From Escherichia phage Henu7, in sequence record NC_054894.1: 49,526 bases of DNA, one strand, 5' to 3'. This document shows positions 4,060-28,456 of this stretch, piece after piece. The position numbers and the translations under genes are program-made. The notes beneath the pieces are model-generated. The model was not told where the DNA came from. It searched no databases and saw only the letters and a list, made by a program, of their open reading frames with translations. Positions within the stretch are counted from its first letter, which is position 1. Every line of letters begins with the position of its first letter.

Positions 4060-4500
4060 TTAGCTATTTGTGCTGTTTATGAAGTCCGACTCTTTCACTA
4101 CGCGCAGCATTTCGTATCGGTCACATTTCGTCGTTAGCGCTTTGCCGTTTGAGTCAAATCTCAGATCTGGACGGCAGAATGAAGCGCGATAGCCCTTGCA
4201 GCCGTTTCGCTTATAGTCGGCGTGAACCTTTTCGGCTCCAGAAACGGAAATCATTCCGCGCTTGCGCCACTGCTGGATAACCTGGTGAGTAACCTTTAAG
4301 CGCCTTGTCATTTCTGCCTGAGATCCGTAATATTCGCAAACGGCATCCAGACGAGCACGCAATCCGGCTTTGACTTCATCCTTTAGAACGTAGTAGCCTG
4401 TTTTTCGCTTGCGCTTTTTCTTGTCCTTACCGCGCTTTACACCGTTGTTGCCATTGATTGTGCGCTTGTCAATTTCGCCAGTTGATGCAGCAATTTTCAT
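4060..4500 (-). CDS. helix-turn-helix DNA-binding protein (candidate early regulator)
   Basis: Start at ATG 4500 with GGAGG RBS; basic region KDKKKRKRK; HTH-like segment SQAEMTRRLKVTHQVIQQWRKRG. Confidence 0.55.
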   Translation of the reverse strand: MKIAASTGEIDKRTINGNNGVKRGKDKKKRKRKTGYYVLKDEVKAGLRARLDAVCEYYGSQAEMTRRLKVTHQVIQQWRKRGMISVSGAEKVHADYKRNGCKGYRASFCRPDLRFDSNGKALTTKCDRYEMLRVVKESDFINSTNS

Positions 4501-4513
4501 ATTAAAACCTCCG

Positions 4514-4532
4514 ATAGCACTTTTTGCTAAAA
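4514..4532 (+). promoter_or_regulatory. palindromic element TAGCA-N5-TGCTA in divergent region between HTH gene and helicase
   Basis: ATAGCACTTTTTGCTAAAA; TATTAT hexamer 22 nt downstream at 4552..4557. Confidence 0.45.
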
Positions 4533-4589
4533 ACATTCAAAACGTATGCGCTATTATACATTCAATCGGTTAACGAATAAAGGTTAAAA

Positions 4590-6590
4590 ATGGCAATTCC
4601 AAACATTGATAAACAGCTTTCCGCCTTGGGTGAGGCGGTAATCAAGGCAATTCAAAATCGCTTTACGTTTGGCGAAATCACCCCATACCCTTACCAGTGC
4701 GTTGCTTACACTGAGATCGCAAAACGCATGAAAAATTACGAGCATCCTTTCTTTGTGAAAGCGTCCGTATCTGCTGGCAAAACCATGATTTTTGCAATGG
4801 TAGCGGCTCAGTGCCAGAGAATGGGGCTTAAAATGATGGTTCTTGCTCGCCAGGGTGAGATCGTAGATCAGGATTCAGAGGAGATCAGTAATTTCGGCGT
4901 GCCTAACTCCGTTTACTGCGCGGCGCTGAAACTCAAGGGAGTACACTTCCCCATCGTTGTTGGTTCCGAGGGAACCGTTTCAAATGGACTCTTTAAGGCG
5001 CTTGGTGACTACGTGCCACACGTTATCGGGATTGACGAATGCCACCAAGTAGATTGGGAGGATTTAGCGGAGGCAATCGAAAACGAGGAGCCGTGGGAGC
5101 AAATGACCACGAAAAAAGGCGAGATTGTCCTGAATGGTGACGGATCCCGCGCTCTAAACAATGACGGCGAACCAATGGAGGGAACCGGACGCACGCAGTA
5201 CACGCTTATCATTCGTGAAATGCAGCGCCGATGCAAAGAGACATACGGGCATGAGTTGCGCATTTTTGGAATGACCGGATCTGAGTTTCGCGGCGTGGTT
5301 CCAATCCTGGTGGAAGATAAGCGCCAGCGCGGATTCTGGCGCGAGCAGGTAACGAACATTGATACCAACTACCTGATCAAGTTCGGCTCCGTTGTGCCTA
5401 CAAACTTTGGCTGCGTAGATGGGTTGGGTTATGACCTTTCAGAGTTCACGGCATCCAGCGAGGACGGCGTAGCAGACTTTGACCAGAAAACCCTCAGGAA
5501 GATGGAGGAGAAGATCCATAAAGATGCAACCATGACGCAAAAAATCATGGCACGCGTTCATGAGATCTGCAAAGACCGCAACGGCGTGCTGGTAACTTGC
5601 GCGGGTGAGCGTCACTGTAAAGAGGCCGCCGCCGCACTTCCGCCAGGGGCAACATACAGGATCATCACTGGCAAGACCGGAGAGAAACAACGTAAGGAAT
5701 GGTTAAAAGAGGCATTCGAGGGAAAAGTAAAATACATTTTCCAGGTTCAAGCACTAACAACTGGCGTAAACGTTCCATATTGGGATACTTCCGTTATCCT
5801 GCGCAAAATAGGATCGCTTACACTGCTGATCCAGCTTTTGGGGCGCGGTATGCGACTGTTAAAGAAATGGCACATTGAGCAAGGATTTAAAAAAGACGAT
5901 CACCTTGTTCTCGACTTTGCCGGATGTATGGACGAGTTGGGGCAACTTTACTTTGATCCTATTCTGGAACAAGCGCAGTATCAGCGCCGTGGCGACAACG
6001 GAAAAGATCCTAAATTCTGCCCTGACTGCGGCACGGAAAACTCATTCTATGCACGCCGTTGCGTTCACGTTGACGAAAACGGAAATCGCTGTGAGTATTT
6101 CTGGAAGTATCGAGAGTGCGAGGATCAGGTAGACCCGCGAACGAAAAAGGTTGTCGTTAAAGGTTGCGGCACTAAAAACGACATATCAGCTAGAATTTGC
6201 CGTTGCTGTGACGTGTCGCTTATTGACCCTAACGAAAAGTTATCCGGCAAGCACTACACTAAAAACGATTGGTGTAATGTAAAATCATTCAGAGTTGACA
6301 TGACCAAAAACCAGCGCGGGATCGTGTTCTGTTATGAGCTTGAGTCTCACGGCGAAACGTTCAAAGCTTATGAGCGATTCTTCCCTGAGTCTGACAACCA
6401 GATCTGCAAGACGCTATGGAGGCAAACGGCGCTCAAGCATATTGCAGATCGCAGGATTGCAGGTGTTACTGCGAGCTATCGCAACGCTCGCAAGATTATG
6501 CAAAACGCGCATCACATTATGGCTCCGAAACGCGTTACGCATCGCAAAAACGCGAAAGGAGAGGACATTATTTATCATCGGGAGTTTTGA
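4590..6590 (+). CDS. SF2 DNA helicase (DExH-box) with C-terminal zinc ribbons
   Basis: Walker A SVSAGKT; DECH box (GIDECHQ); Cys-rich C-terminal clusters CPDCG...C..C. Confidence 0.75.
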   Translation: MAIPNIDKQLSALGEAVIKAIQNRFTFGEITPYPYQCVAYTEIAKRMKNYEHPFFVKASVSAGKTMIFAMVAAQCQRMGLKMMVLARQGEIVDQDSEEISNFGVPNSVYCAALKLKGVHFPIVVGSEGTVSNGLFKALGDYVPHVIGIDECHQVDWEDLAEAIENEEPWEQMTTKKGEIVLNGDGSRALNNDGEPMEGTGRTQYTLIIREMQRRCKETYGHELRIFGMTGSEFRGVVPILVEDKRQRGFWREQVTNIDTNYLIKFGSVVPTNFGCVDGLGYDLSEFTASSEDGVADFDQKTLRKMEEKIHKDATMTQKIMARVHEICKDRNGVLVTCAGERHCKEAAAALPPGATYRIITGKTGEKQRKEWLKEAFEGKVKYIFQVQALTTGVNVPYWDTSVILRKIGSLTLLIQLLGRGMRLLKKWHIEQGFKKDDHLVLDFAGCMDELGQLYFDPILEQAQYQRRGDNGKDPKFCPDCGTENSFYARRCVHVDENGNRCEYFWKYRECEDQVDPRTKKVVVKGCGTKNDISARICRCCDVSLIDPNEKLSGKHYTKNDWCNVKSFRVDMTKNQRGIVFCYELESHGETFKAYERFFPESDNQICKTLWRQTALKHIADRRIAGVTASYRNARKIMQNAHHIMAPKRVTHRKNAKGEDIIYHREF

Positions 6591-8760: not shown

Positions 8761-8998
8761 GCAAGGCCGCGAGGCCGTTTGGAATCACGCCAAAGAAACC
8801 GGAATGGCAGACGATATAGCACGAATTGCTAAAATCTTTGATCTGGCTGATGTTAGCATTATCAGCAACGGGAAAATGACTTACTTGCACGAGAGGCCGC
8901 GCAAAATGCATCGCGTTCCAGCAATCCCGACAAAAATCGACTTCAAAGAAGCAATGGAAAAAATTAGAGAGCCGAAAAAGTATTACAAAGGAGAATAG
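8750..8998 (+). CDS. hypothetical protein
   Basis: ATG 8750 with GGAGGG RBS, overlapping the end of the upstream ORF. Confidence 0.45.
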   Translation: MKVEQGREAVWNHAKETGMADDIARIAKIFDLADVSIISNGKMTYLHERPRKMHRVPAIPTKIDFKEAMEKIREPKKYYKGE

Positions 8999-9092
8999 TT
9001 ATCATGTGGCGCTTGCTTGTTCTTCCAATGCCCGTTATCATTGCCGCCGTTGTTATGTACGCACTTGTTATGTGATTTAAGAGGAAAAATTA

Positions 9093-10211
9093 ATGATTCA
9101 GAAAATGACAGACCAGCAGTTTAAAGACGCACGAGCGGAGGGTAAAACCTACAAGCAGATCGCGGAGGAATTTGGCTTGAATGTTCGCACAGTTGAGCGA
9201 CGAGCGGCAAACCTTGCTCGCAAGGGTGAGACTGACGCGAAAGGCGCTCCAGGTTTTGCGGTTGTTCGCGAGTCAGTCCTTACGCGTGCGAACGGCGAGG
9301 AAGTTATGCGCTGGACTATCACCAACAAGGATAAAGAGCAGTTGGAGGCATTAATGCAAGCCGCTATGGAAGCATTCGCAGAGGAAGTGCCACGCCTTGA
9401 TCCTCAGCCTGAAAGCCGCAAAGACTACAGCGAGAGCCTAGCGCTATACCCAATCTTTGATATGCACATTGGCGCAATGGCTCACAAGCATGAGTGTGGT
9501 GAGAATTGGGATACGGCAACAGCCGAAAATGTCATGAATGACTTCTTTGATTATGCGGTTGAGTGTGCGCCAAATAGCGAGAAAGCCGTGCTCCTGATTG
9601 GTGGAGATATGCTTCACAGTGACGGCCTTGAGGCTGTAACACCTGCCAGCGGTCACGTTCTGGATCAGGATAGCCGCTACGCCAAACTTGTTTATGTCGC
9701 AATCCGAGCAACGCGCCGCGCTATCTCCTTGATGTTGACCAAGCACAAAGAGGTTGAAATTCAGGTGATCGAGGGCAATCATGACCAATCAGGCATGATC
9801 TGGCTACGCGCAGCAATGGCTGCGGCATACGAAAACGAGCCACGAGTTACGGTTGATGTTTCTCCCCGCGTGGTGCATCACACGCAGTACGGAAAAACCT
9901 TCCTCGCGTATCATCACGGTCACACCGTGCGCAAGCCTGAAACGTTATTGATGATGTGTGCGGCAGATTGGCGCGAGGATTTTGGCAAATCAAAATCAAT
10001 GTATGCTCATGTAGGCCATTGGCATCACCAGACCGTAACAGAAACCAGCCTGGGGATTGTTGAAGTTCACAGCACTATGGCGGCTAAAGATGCGTATGCG
10101 GCACGCGGCGGCTGGCGCTCTCGTCGTCGCGCGGCGGTTATCATCTACGACAAAGAGCACGGCGAGATCGGGAGATTTATGTTCTACCCTGAAATGATGG
10201 AGTCAAAATAA
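9093..10211 (+). CDS. HTH domain fused to calcineurin-like metallophosphoesterase
   Basis: N-terminal HTH YKQIAEEFGLNVRTVERR; metallophosphoesterase motifs DMHIG, GGDMLHSDG, GNHD, HHGH, GHWHH; RBS AAGAGGA. Confidence 0.6.
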   Translation: MIQKMTDQQFKDARAEGKTYKQIAEEFGLNVRTVERRAANLARKGETDAKGAPGFAVVRESVLTRANGEEVMRWTITNKDKEQLEALMQAAMEAFAEEVPRLDPQPESRKDYSESLALYPIFDMHIGAMAHKHECGENWDTATAENVMNDFFDYAVECAPNSEKAVLLIGGDMLHSDGLEAVTPASGHVLDQDSRYAKLVYVAIRATRRAISLMLTKHKEVEIQVIEGNHDQSGMIWLRAAMAAAYENEPRVTVDVSPRVVHHTQYGKTFLAYHHGHTVRKPETLLMMCAADWREDFGKSKSMYAHVGHWHHQTVTETSLGIVEVHSTMAAKDAYAARGGWRSRRRAAVIIYDKEHGEIGRFMFYPEMMESK

Positions 10212-10381
10212 TGAAAGTTAAATGCGTTGAGAATTCATCTAAAACACTGCCTTACTACGAGGGCTTTGTGTACGAGGCGGATACTTTACCTGGCGGGATG
10301 TATAAGATTAAAGATGAATCAGGGCAGCACATTATTGCGCCGCTAAAGGGGCATTATCTGGAGTTTTTACGGGTTGATTAA
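10211..10381 (+). CDS. small hypothetical protein
   Basis: ATG overlaps upstream stop (TAATG); followed directly by an intrinsic terminator. Confidence 0.4.
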   Translation: MKVKCVENSSKTLPYYEGFVYEADTLPGGMYKIKDESGQHIIAPLKGHYLEFLRVD

Positions 10382-10403
10382 CATTTAACTTCATGAGCTT
10401 ACA

Positions 10404-10434
10404 AAGGGTTAGCATTTGCTAGCCCTTTTTTTAT
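10404..10434 (+). terminator. intrinsic terminator
   Basis: Hairpin GGGTTAGCATTTGCTAGCCC followed by TTTTTTT; the stem itself contains a TAGCA...TGCTA palindrome. Confidence 0.75.
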
Positions 10435-10508
10435 TGTTTTGTTTTTACTCGTTGCTGGTTAACATACACACACTTGACTATTGACATTTAAAACAAGGAG
10501 ATCAGATT

Positions 10509-10724
10509 ATGAGAGAATTTTTAAACGCAGCTACCACCAGCACCGGAGGCGCGTCACTGGCTGGAGCGGCAACAGGTCAAATTACAATTGCGGTTGCTGG
10601 CCTTGTACTTATGGCTGCCTTTGGATTTTGGGGCGCTTACTTGCGCTGGAAAGATAGCAAGGCGCTGCGAGAGGCTTTGGATCGTGAAGATATCAAAGAG
10701 GCAATTCGAATCAGGGGGAAATAA
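10509..10724 (+). CDS. holin (probable pinholin)
   Basis: 71 aa with one strongly hydrophobic segment [21 protein letters not shown] and charged C-terminus; immediately upstream of endolysin; RBS AAGGAG. Confidence 0.6.
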
Positions 10725-26813: not shown

Positions 26814-28385
26814 ATGCTTATATGGGAAGATTTAACAGTGGCGCAGAAACGCGCCATTAAAGAAATGAGTGAATACTCTTTTGAGAAGATGATCCGAATC
26901 TGGTTCCAGTTGCTACAGGGTCAGAAATTCCTGGGTAACTGGCATTTCAGTTATTTGTGTCACGAGGTGGAGAAAATCATTTCCGGCGAGTCGCAAAACG
27001 TGATCTTTAACATCACGCCAGGCTCAGGCAAAACTGAGGTTTTCTCGATCCATATGTCGCCCTATGCGTCACTGAAAAGCAGGAAGGTGCGAAACCTCAA
27101 CCTGTCATTCTCTGATGGGCTTGTCCAGCAGAACAGCAACCGGATAAAAGAAATTATAGGCTCTCCAGAGTGGCAAGAGTTATGGCCTGGCAAGCTGGCA
27201 AAAGCAAGCGCAAAAGATCTGATTGTTCAGGACGGCAACGGCAAGGTTAAATTGCAGGTCAACTCTCGCTCCATCGGCGGCCAGGTAACGGGTTTGCGTG
27301 GCGGCTATATGGATGATGGATTTACCGGAATGTTGGTACTTGACGATCCAGATAAACCTGACGACATGTTTTCAAAGGTGCGGCGCGAAGCGATTCACAA
27401 CCGCCTAAAAAACACCGTCCGATCTCGTCGAATGAAGGACACAACGCCTATCGTGATGGTTCAGCAGCGGCTACACGTCAACGATTCGACGTGGTTTATG
27501 ACGAGCGGCGGCATGGGCGGCATTGAGTTTAAAGTTGTGAGCATTCCGGCGCTGGTCACGAAAGAGTATGGCGATTCGCTCCCTGATTGGTTAAAACCAG
27601 AGTTTGAGCGTGACGTGCTGAATAGCGATCCAGTTTACATTGACGGCGTGGCGCACTACTCATTCTGGCCTGCAAAGGAGAGTGCAAAGGACTTGCTCTC
27701 GCTACGCGAAGCTGATCCATATACTTTTGCGTCTCAGTACCAGCAGCAGCCAATAGCGCTGGGTGGCAACGTATTCAAGGTGGATTGGTTCCAGTTTTAC
27801 GGCGACGGCGAGAAATGCACGCTGCCTAAACCGGATCGCTTTGAATATACGTTTATCACTGGCGATACTGCGCAGAAAGCCGGAGAGCTTAACGACTACT
27901 CTGTTTTCTGTTATTGGGGCATGTTCAAGAATCGCGTTTACTTCATTGACGGCATCCGTGGAAAGTGGGAGGCTCCAGAACTTGAAACCAACTTCAAGGC
28001 GTTTGTCAATCAATGCTGGAAGCGTAATAAAGAGTGCGGAAGCTTGCGACGGATCCACATAGAGGACAAAGCGAGCGGTACGGGTCTGATTCAGGGGGCG
28101 CAAAAGAGCTTACCTATTGATATAAATCCCGTTCAGCGAAGCACGGACAAAGTTACCCGCGCAATGGATGCCGCGCCAGTTATGCGAGCAGGACGCGTTG
28201 CGCTGCCAGAGAGTCACCCGATGTTAAACGAGATTCTCGCAGAGGTAGCAGCTTTCACTTTCGACGACTCGCACCCGAACGACGATATCGTAGATAACAT
28301 CGTTGATGCTGTTAACGTTGAAATGAACCTGGCAGACGATCCAGTAGCGCGAATGAAAAAGCTTGCTGGGCTACGGAAGAAATAG
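26814..28385 (+). CDS. terminase large subunit
   Basis: 523 aa; P-loop-like ITPGSGKTE; acidic nuclease-type C-terminal half; followed by portal gene. Confidence 0.75.
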   Translation: MLIWEDLTVAQKRAIKEMSEYSFEKMIRIWFQLLQGQKFLGNWHFSYLCHEVEKIISGESQNVIFNITPGSGKTEVFSIHMSPYASLKSRKVRNLNLSFSDGLVQQNSNRIKEIIGSPEWQELWPGKLAKASAKDLIVQDGNGKVKLQVNSRSIGGQVTGLRGGYMDDGFTGMLVLDDPDKPDDMFSKVRREAIHNRLKNTVRSRRMKDTTPIVMVQQRLHVNDSTWFMTSGGMGGIEFKVVSIPALVTKEYGDSLPDWLKPEFERDVLNSDPVYIDGVAHYSFWPAKESAKDLLSLREADPYTFASQYQQQPIALGGNVFKVDWFQFYGDGEKCTLPKPDRFEYTFITGDTAQKAGELNDYSVFCYWGMFKNRVYFIDGIRGKWEAPELETNFKAFVNQCWKRNKECGSLRRIHIEDKASGTGLIQGAQKSLPIDINPVQRSTDKVTRAMDAAPVMRAGRVALPESHPMLNEILAEVAAFTFDDSHPNDDIVDNIVDAVNVEMNLADDPVARMKKLAGLRKK

Positions 28386-28400
28386 CACGAATTGCTAAAA
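28382..28400 (+). promoter_or_regulatory. palindromic element between terminase and portal genes
   Basis: ATAGCACGAATTGCTAAAA, then terminator-like hairpin GGCTGGACTTTTCCAGCC plus T-run at 28413..28440. Confidence 0.4.
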
Positions 28401-28456
28401 GCGTGTACAATGAAGGCTGGACTTTTCCAGCCTTTTTTATTATGGGAGATCAGATA

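Follow-up and report, generated by a model that had tools for sequence, protein, structure and literature searches.

A helix-turn-helix metallophosphoesterase of T1-like phages as a candidate DNA-tethered nuclease

Escherichia phage Henu7 (sequence record NC_054894.1), whose whole stretch of 49,526 nucleotides (nt) we call the window, has at positions 9093-10211 a gene for a protein with a helix-turn-helix (HTH) at its N-terminus and a calcineurin-like metallophosphoesterase (MPE) in the remainder. With moderate confidence, we read this protein as an accessory DNA nuclease that is tethered to DNA by its HTH. We favour this reading because of the conserved metal site, the Mre11-like motifs, the lack of PPP phosphatase signatures and the family-wide presence of the HTH, and also because of DNA-metabolism genes in its neighbourhood, the toxicity of an ortholog in E. 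coli and the viability of phage mutants in that ortholog that escape the DRT7 defence.

The mechanism can be sketched as follows. A binuclear-metal (probably Mn2+) calcineurin-like phosphodiesterase would be held on DNA by a domain resembling sigma-70 region 4 and LuxR, and would cut or trim DNA during infection. It might degrade the host chromosome, which would feed nucleotide salvage and silence the host; this option is suggested by the polynucleotide kinase (PNK) and deoxynucleoside monophosphate (dNMP) kinase genes among the neighbours and by the analogy with the mycobacteriophage protein Gp48. Another option is that the enzyme processes phage replication and recombination intermediates, as suggested by a prophage in which it is encoded next to a DnaB helicase. 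DRT7, a reverse-transcriptase defence, would then respond to the resulting DNA ends or single-stranded DNA. That DNA is the substrate, that the HTH binds DNA and what the biological role is are points that we infer.

The protein and its domains

The gene and the parts of its product (positions in amino acids, aa) are these:

9093..10211, + strand: HTH-metallophosphoesterase gene, 372 aa, ATG start (open reading frame list)
9081..9084, + strand: Shine-Dalgarno sequence GAGG, 8 nt before the ATG at 9093 (read from the sequence)
9093..9230, + strand: N-terminal three-helix HTH, sigma-70 region 4 / LuxR-like, aa 1-46 (helices 7-15, 20-27 and 31-43)
9261..9386, + strand: conserved beta-hairpin (aa 57-77) and helix (aa 81-98), forming the linker between HTH and core (AlphaFold2 models, family alignment)
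9429..10184, + strand: calcineurin-like MPE core, aa 113-364

A first-pass annotation, made by a model from the letters alone, had described this open reading frame (ORF) as an HTH joined to a metallophosphoesterase, quoting for the HTH the peptide YKQIAEEFGLNVRTVERRAANLARKG, which is aa 20-45. The description is confirmed, at a level well outside what chance would give. The profile phrog_704 ("DNA repair exonuclease") matches over its full length (E 1.4e-148; aa 3-369 against profile positions 2-389 of 390). AlphaFold2, run on the full protein with a 41-sequence alignment (predicted local distance difference test score, pLDDT, 78; predicted template modelling score 0.70), folds the N-terminus as a three-helix HTH and aa 113-364 as an alpha/beta core with the MPE beta-sandwich, the hairpin and helix of the linker lying between them. 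Two residues of the linker hairpin, G68 and W74, are nearly invariant in the family alignment.

The Pfam search suggested at that stage matched both domains, each under its gathering score. With the single protein, Sigma70_r4_2 falls just short (25.3 bits against a cut-off of 25.7) and Metallophos (PF00149) reaches 14.2 bits against 21.5 (E 0.062); the family appears to be too diverged for the latter model. NCBIfam gave only sub-threshold sigma-70 and PdeM fragments. A PDB sequence search with the single protein yielded nothing useful, and the family profile yielded weak matches, the best of them GerE/LuxR-type HTHs (GerE, E 0.019), plus a designed repeat protein. That the ORF might be a sigma factor was considered and rejected, because it has no region 2; its region 4 match covers aa 14-42 only, the rest being MPE, and TIGR02937 (sigma-70 family) scores 23.2 bits against a cut-off of 42.9.

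Catalytic motifs

The full metal-binding set (DxH, GD, GNHD, H and GHxH) had been claimed for the protein, and all five motifs are present. Their conservation was assessed in 150 cluster representatives, nearly all of them 32-45% identical to the query:

9459..9467, + strand: motif I, D123-M-H125; D in 148/150 and H in 149/150, the rest being gaps; invariant in a further alignment
9603..9617, + strand: motif II, G171-D172-M-L-H175; D172 in 150/150, H175 in 146/150
9774..9785, + strand: motif III, G228-N229-H230-D231; N229 and H230 in 150/150
9915..9917, + strand: motif IV, H275; 150/150
10014..10025, + strand: motif V, G308-H309-W-H311; H309 in 142/150, H311 in 149/150

The metal ligands are thus retained across the family, with D123, H125, D172, N229, H230, H275 and H311 invariant or nearly so. 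Motif I has the form DxHxG, motif II GDxLH and motif III GNHD. In Mre11 of archaea and eukaryotes, motif II has the form GDxxH. Neither of the PPP signatures, GDxVDRG and GNHE, is found in the protein, which has GGDMLHSDG and GNHD instead.

Between motifs II and III lies a conserved segment specific to the family, V-T-P-x-S-G-H-x-L-D-x-D-x-R (aa 178-195, nt 9624-9677), with T183 invariant and L190, D191 and R195 almost invariant. The segment, to which AlphaFold2 assigns a very low confidence (pLDDT < 50), may form a loop that binds substrate or DNA.

Family and distribution

The window belongs to a T1-like phage of the Drexlerviridae. Its region is 96% identical to that of Klebsiella phage Samwise (Drexlerviridae, Tempevirinae) and 92-94% identical to those of the E. 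coli BASEL phages IsaakIselin and JohannLBurckhardt; the translated IsaakIselin gene is 97.6% identical to the window protein. T1 gp16 (ST16; 56% identity) is its syntenic ortholog, and Bas01_0050, 58% identical over the full length and encoded at the same genomic position, is an ortholog as well. The window, Samwise, T1 and Bas01 have a common gene order: MPE, (SH3), holin, endolysin, spanin. In T1 and Bas01, as in the window, the MPE gene is preceded by helicase and methylase genes and then by small ORFs. The window protein does not differ substantively from T1 gp16, Bas01_0050 and PHROG 704 in family or in full-length architecture, and the gene, its two-domain make-up and its position have already been catalogued under T1 gp16 and PHROG 704. 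Other annotations given to T1 gp16-type proteins are "putative phosphoesterase" and "DNA polymerase II small subunit"; the second reflects fold similarity only.

The fusion had been called unusual. This is unsupported, because the HTH-MPE architecture is the norm of a huge phage family. By tblastn, homologs occur in 2,038 phage records, 1,927 of which cover at least 80% of the query, and their hosts include Escherichia, Klebsiella, Salmonella, Vibrio, Campylobacter, Flavobacterium, Rhodobacter and Ruegeria. A HMMER scan of 1.84 billion cluster representatives (50% identity) found 4,613 clusters at E <= 1e-3 and 1,014 at E <= 1e-30, mostly 360-440 aa long. Within the Drexlerviridae, a module including the gene is reported in 508 of 522 genomes (2026 paper, PMC13164509).

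In 146 representatives, of which nearly all share 32-45% identity with the query, the 100-150 residues N-terminal of the core nearly always contain an HTH-like consensus (...GS..KAAK.LGV...TV......R...KAA..G), and a hairpin consensus (P.GF.VKG.STLY..DG....QWVKT) nearly always precedes the core. A Pfam scan of 119 diverse members matched HTH_1 in 23, Sigma70_r4_2 in 16 (best E = 1.5e-9), HTH_8 in 16, HTH_23 in 15 and GerE in 6; Metallophos was matched in 25 (E < 0.01) and Metallophos_2 in 20. The HTH thus belongs to the normal architecture of the family. Homologs from Rhodobacter and Vibrio phages that looked as if they had no HTH turned out to have coding sequences of 387-415 aa with diverged N-termini, and that appearance was rejected. 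In a few N-terminally short relatives the stretch before the core is 46-58 aa, which is shorter than HTH, hairpin and helix together. These relatives probably keep the hairpin and helix only, and some of them may be truncated gene calls.

Gene neighbours were surveyed at 102 IMG/VR loci, representing 17 lineages at 60% identity and drawn from two single-protein scans. The recurrent ones are endolysin (5 lineages), the exonuclease phrog_107 (3) and a nucleotide-kinase-like protein (3), followed by PNK, dNMP kinase, holin, methyltransferase and helicase with 2 lineages each; a protein resembling deoxynucleoside triphosphate (dNTP) pyrophosphohydrolases is also found. The neighbours form two groups, one of DNA- and nucleotide-metabolism genes and one of lysis genes.

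Relation to known metallophosphoesterases

When the family profile was aligned by hhalign with the single sequences of E. coli SbcD, lambda NinI and Bxb1 gp47, the E values were 0.016, 0.09 and 0.004, respectively, which is too weak for placement in a subfamily. Mre11 and SbcD have a capping domain C-terminal to the core. The window protein has none and has no room for one, because its core reaches about aa 364 in a protein of 372 aa; an N-terminal HTH and hairpin-helix are present instead, and the sequence-profile similarity to E. coli SbcD is negligible. No Rad50/SbcC partner was seen among the neighbours in T1 or in the annotated Samwise region, nor among the annotated top clusters of the neighbour survey. 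Archaeal PolD DP1, a 3'-5' proofreading exonuclease, and the inactive eukaryotic B-subunits differ from the window protein, which has neither an oligonucleotide/oligosaccharide-binding fold nor a DP2 partner.

The MPEs of cluster A mycobacteriophages (A10ZJ24 Gp48, Bxb1 gp47) are likewise phage-encoded and host-toxic, lie among replication genes and give the best, though weak, hhalign match. A10ZJ24 Gp48, which has no HTH, has been reported to be toxic, to act as a phosphodiesterase and to degrade host DNA both in vivo and in vitro. These proteins differ from ours in being smaller (about 255 aa), in having motif I as early as residue 10 and in lacking HTH and hairpin-helix, and they make up a separate subfamily in phages of Actinobacteria. 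Lambda NinI belongs to the same superfamily and its gene also lies upstream of lysis genes, but it is a 221-aa protein of the PPP type (GDLVDRG) without an HTH, and of all these proteins it has the weakest structural and profile similarity to the window family.

The case for and against a DNA nuclease

Fold matches favour SbcD, Mre11 and PolD DP1, which are nucleic-acid phosphodiesterases, over Ser/Thr phosphatases. The first-pass annotation had left the choice between a targeted nuclease and a phosphatase. A DNA-targeted nuclease now fits best, while the signatures of PPP phosphatases are missing. For a third suggestion, the degradation of nucleotide second messengers, we found nothing in support.

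Genetic data come from the ortholog. According to a 2026 bioRxiv preprint on DRT7/UG10, escape mutants of phage Bas1 have missense or frameshift mutations in Bas01_0050, which the preprint calls "a nucleic acid-targeting phosphoesterase", and lambda escapers lost gam. The same preprint states that Bas01_0050 is toxic in E. coli, which prevented its co-expression. The MPE gene is most likely non-essential. It is not mentioned in the Stokar-Avihail escaper screen.

Several considerations weigh against a nuclease. The literature search found no enzyme assay for the T1 gp16 family, and the family name "DNA repair exonuclease" derives solely from remote homology. The profile-to-sequence comparisons with SbcD, Bxb1 gp47 and NinI are all weak, and neither the capping domain of Mre11/SbcD nor, in the annotated stretch around the ortholog, a Rad50/SbcC-like partner is seen. 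Toxicity and DRT7 escape are compatible with other enzymatic or non-enzymatic activities as well, and the Bas1 escape mutants, whose positions are not given in the preprint, may retain the HTH. Nor does a nuclease account for the recurrent placement of the gene beside lysis genes.

A bolder version of the nuclease hypothesis, to which we give only an outside chance, is that the HTH is specific for a sequence or structure. It would then steer the nuclease to host sites, to the phage origin or pac, or to promoter-proximal palindromes, or it would double as a sigma-4-like early/late regulator. If this were true, the family would consist of widespread, unrecognised site-directed MPE nucleases or nuclease-regulators, and their site-directed action would make a specific DNA lesion that is sensed by DRT7-type reverse-transcriptase defences.

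The interest of the protein lies not in its architecture but in the size of its family, the absence of assays and the link to DRT7. PHROG 704 is among the most widespread phage enzyme families without biochemical characterisation, spanning phages of Proteobacteria, Bacteroidota and other hosts in thousands of sequence clusters. The identity of the substrate could reveal the signal that DRT7 detects. It could also identify the T1 gene for degradation of the host chromosome. Such degradation by T1 has long been known; our literature search on its classical genetics returned nothing.

Alternative functions

One alternative overlaps the nuclease hypothesis in chemistry and differs from it in role. 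The protein could be a replication-associated 3'-5' exonuclease or end-processor, similar to DP1 or Mre11, that acts at phage forks or origins and is brought to a particular phage site by its HTH. A homolog of 65% identity is encoded directly upstream of a DnaB-type helicase gene in a lambdoid prophage of E. coli. PolD DP1 and polymerase B-subunits are among the top fold matches, and T1-like phages have a primase and a helicase, with no DNA polymerase gene in the T1 record or the annotated part of Samwise. The mycobacteriophage MPE Bxb1 gp47 is needed for phage DNA replication. However, Bas01_0050 is not essential for replication in the laboratory host, because frameshift escapers of Bas1 grow, and in most lineages no fixed partner replication gene adjoins the MPE gene. 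We regard a replication role of this kind as unlikely, though worth keeping in view. A phosphodiesterase for small molecules or nucleotides, to which we give rather little weight, would act in counter-defence against oligonucleotide signals or in the metabolism of dNTP-related compounds, the HTH serving regulation or localisation. Such a role would suit neighbours like the nucleotide kinases and the dNTP pyrophosphohydrolase-like protein, but it is difficult to see why a soluble enzyme acting on small molecules would keep a DNA-binding domain throughout the family, and toxicity in E. coli is more easily explained by DNA damage. Loss of the gene aids escape from DRT7, which is the opposite of what is expected of an anti-defence factor against that system; a PADLOC scan of the protein found no family at E up to 1, and we saw nothing else that connects it with known families of defence or anti-defence proteins.

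If the protein were primarily a transcription factor, its HTH, dimerised through the MPE domain, would bind palindromes near -42 of extended -10 promoters, or sites before the late lysis and structural operons, and switch phage expression, leaving the MPE as a second activity. The palindrome considered in the next section is over-represented and stands 22 nt before -10-like hexamers, a geometry typical of class II activators of the LuxR/CRP type. GerE/LuxR-type HTHs are the best PDB sequence matches of the family profile, and in several lineages the gene is the last before lysis, terminase or portal genes. We nevertheless consider this quite unlikely. The Bas1 frameshift mutants are viable, the strictly conserved catalytic site argues for enzymology as the main function, Dhillonvirus YD-2008.s has an HTH-MPE without an over-represented TAGCA-type palindrome, and a Cro/YdaS-like regulator conserved in the Drexlerviridae is the more obvious binder. 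Very unlikely, in our opinion, is a Ser/Thr (or Tyr) protein phosphatase like lambda NinI that acts on host or phage phosphoproteins. It would agree with the shared superfamily and with the broadly similar map position in lambda (NinI, Q, then S-R-Rz), but GDxVDRG and GNHE are replaced in the window protein, NinI gave the weakest of the three hhalign results, and it is not obvious what a protein phosphatase would do with an HTH.

The TAGCA palindrome

The palindrome TAGCA-N5-TGCTA, with the sequence TAGCAC(TTTTT/GAATT)GCTA and the form TAGCACGAATTGCTA, occurs in 12 copies in the window against 0.08 expected; 9 copies are in the + orientation and 3 are reversed. It is also found in T1 (10 copies) and in Bas01 (4 copies in 16 kb).

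4515, 7007, 8817, 16608, 16948, 19335, 20738, 21706, 23207, 24209, 28383, 32637: palindrome copies, 15 nt each
4060-4536, - strand: Cro/YdaS-like HTH protein, 157 aa, ortholog of the T1 ST23 "transcriptional regulator"

After 8 of the 9 copies in + orientation there are exactly 22 nt and then a -10-like hexamer, often an extended -10 (for example gcgcTATAAT or tgGTATAGT); the copy at 8817 fits less well. The centre of the palindrome would thereby lie near -42, which points to the geometry of an operator or a class II activator site and not to a terminator.

The first-pass annotation had offered the HTH-MPE as a regulator that binds these elements. The comparison of phages does not bear this out, and the idea was dropped as the leading one. 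In Dhillonvirus YD-2008.s, the HTH-MPE is 46% identical and its recognition helix is similar (R-N-V-x-x-R-x-x-x-L-x-K-x-G), and the palindrome is not over-represented. The gene of the Cro/YdaS-like protein is divergent from the helicase operon, and the copy at 4515 overlaps its first codons at the 5' end. This protein is the most obvious candidate for the palindrome binder. The HTH-MPE is not favoured, because YD-2008.s lacks the palindrome and because the Cro/YdaS-like regulator is encoded beside a copy.

The large terminase ORF ends at 28385 and the portal ORF starts at 28403. The copy at 28383-28397 sits in the 17-nt gap that separates them, which points to a promoter or operator within the structural operon.

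Genomic surroundings in the window

Around the MPE gene the following features can be recognised:

4590-6590, + strand: superfamily 2 helicase, upstream of the MPE gene
10211..10381, + strand: DUF7244 ORF, 56 aa, standalone SH3-like (Pfam E 1e-27); its start overlaps the MPE stop
10403..10436, + strand: strong intrinsic-terminator-like hairpin, 11-bp stem and T run (terminator scan, sequence)
10509-10724: holin gene; endolysin and spanin genes next

A Dam-type methyltransferase gene and several small ORFs are also upstream on the same strand. Together with the helicase and Dam methylase genes, the MPE gene belongs to a rightward early operon, in which it is the last gene for an enzyme. It had been described as lying immediately upstream of the lysis cassette. 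By position this is right; the DUF7244/SH3 ORF and the terminator hairpin nevertheless come before the holin gene. The MPE gene stands beside the cassette and is not part of it, because the hairpin lies between them. In the T1 record, a terminator is annotated directly after ST16.

The DUF7244 ORF sits before the terminator, in the transcription unit of the MPE gene and not with the holin gene. The standalone SH3 (DUF7244) has recently been put forward as an accessory to the lysis module of Drexlerviridae, and in Drexlerviridae without an SH3 gene, PNK or dNMP kinase comes right after the MPE gene (PMC13164509). The hairpin is AAAGGGTTAGCATTTGCTAGCCCTTT followed by the T run; its stem holds TAGCA and TGCTA half-sites with a 2-nt spacer and so resembles the promoter palindrome. 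A promoter-like match at 10481-10510 was not taken as the lysis promoter, as it overlaps the start codon of the holin gene.

Context in other phages and prophages

In Dhillonvirus YD-2008.s, the HTH-MPE gene lies between the endolysin and small terminase genes; in Yersinia phage 281, it is found between a peptidoglycan hydrolase gene and those of PNK, dNMP kinase and portal. It adjoins endolysin or holin genes in Vibrio phage K367 and Rhodobacter phage RcAquaphina, and Jerseyvirus has it between tail genes, on the opposite strand. Placement as the last or nearly last gene before lysis, terminase or portal genes recurs in several unrelated phage groups. The adjacency to lysis genes may reflect either the boundary between early and late genes or a functional link.

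The lambdoid prophage with the gene next to that of DnaB (GCA_005390225.1, contig BFWK01000076, 5665-10559) has a replication module in unusual order: an HTH_36 gene that likely encodes the initiator stands further upstream, followed by a 330-aa protein, the HTH-MPE and the DnaB helicase, with NinB downstream. The 330-aa protein has faint T5orf172/DUF4379 matches and is possibly a homing endonuclease. The 17-kb locus of this prophage contains 4 copies of a different palindrome, GTGTC-N5-GACAC.

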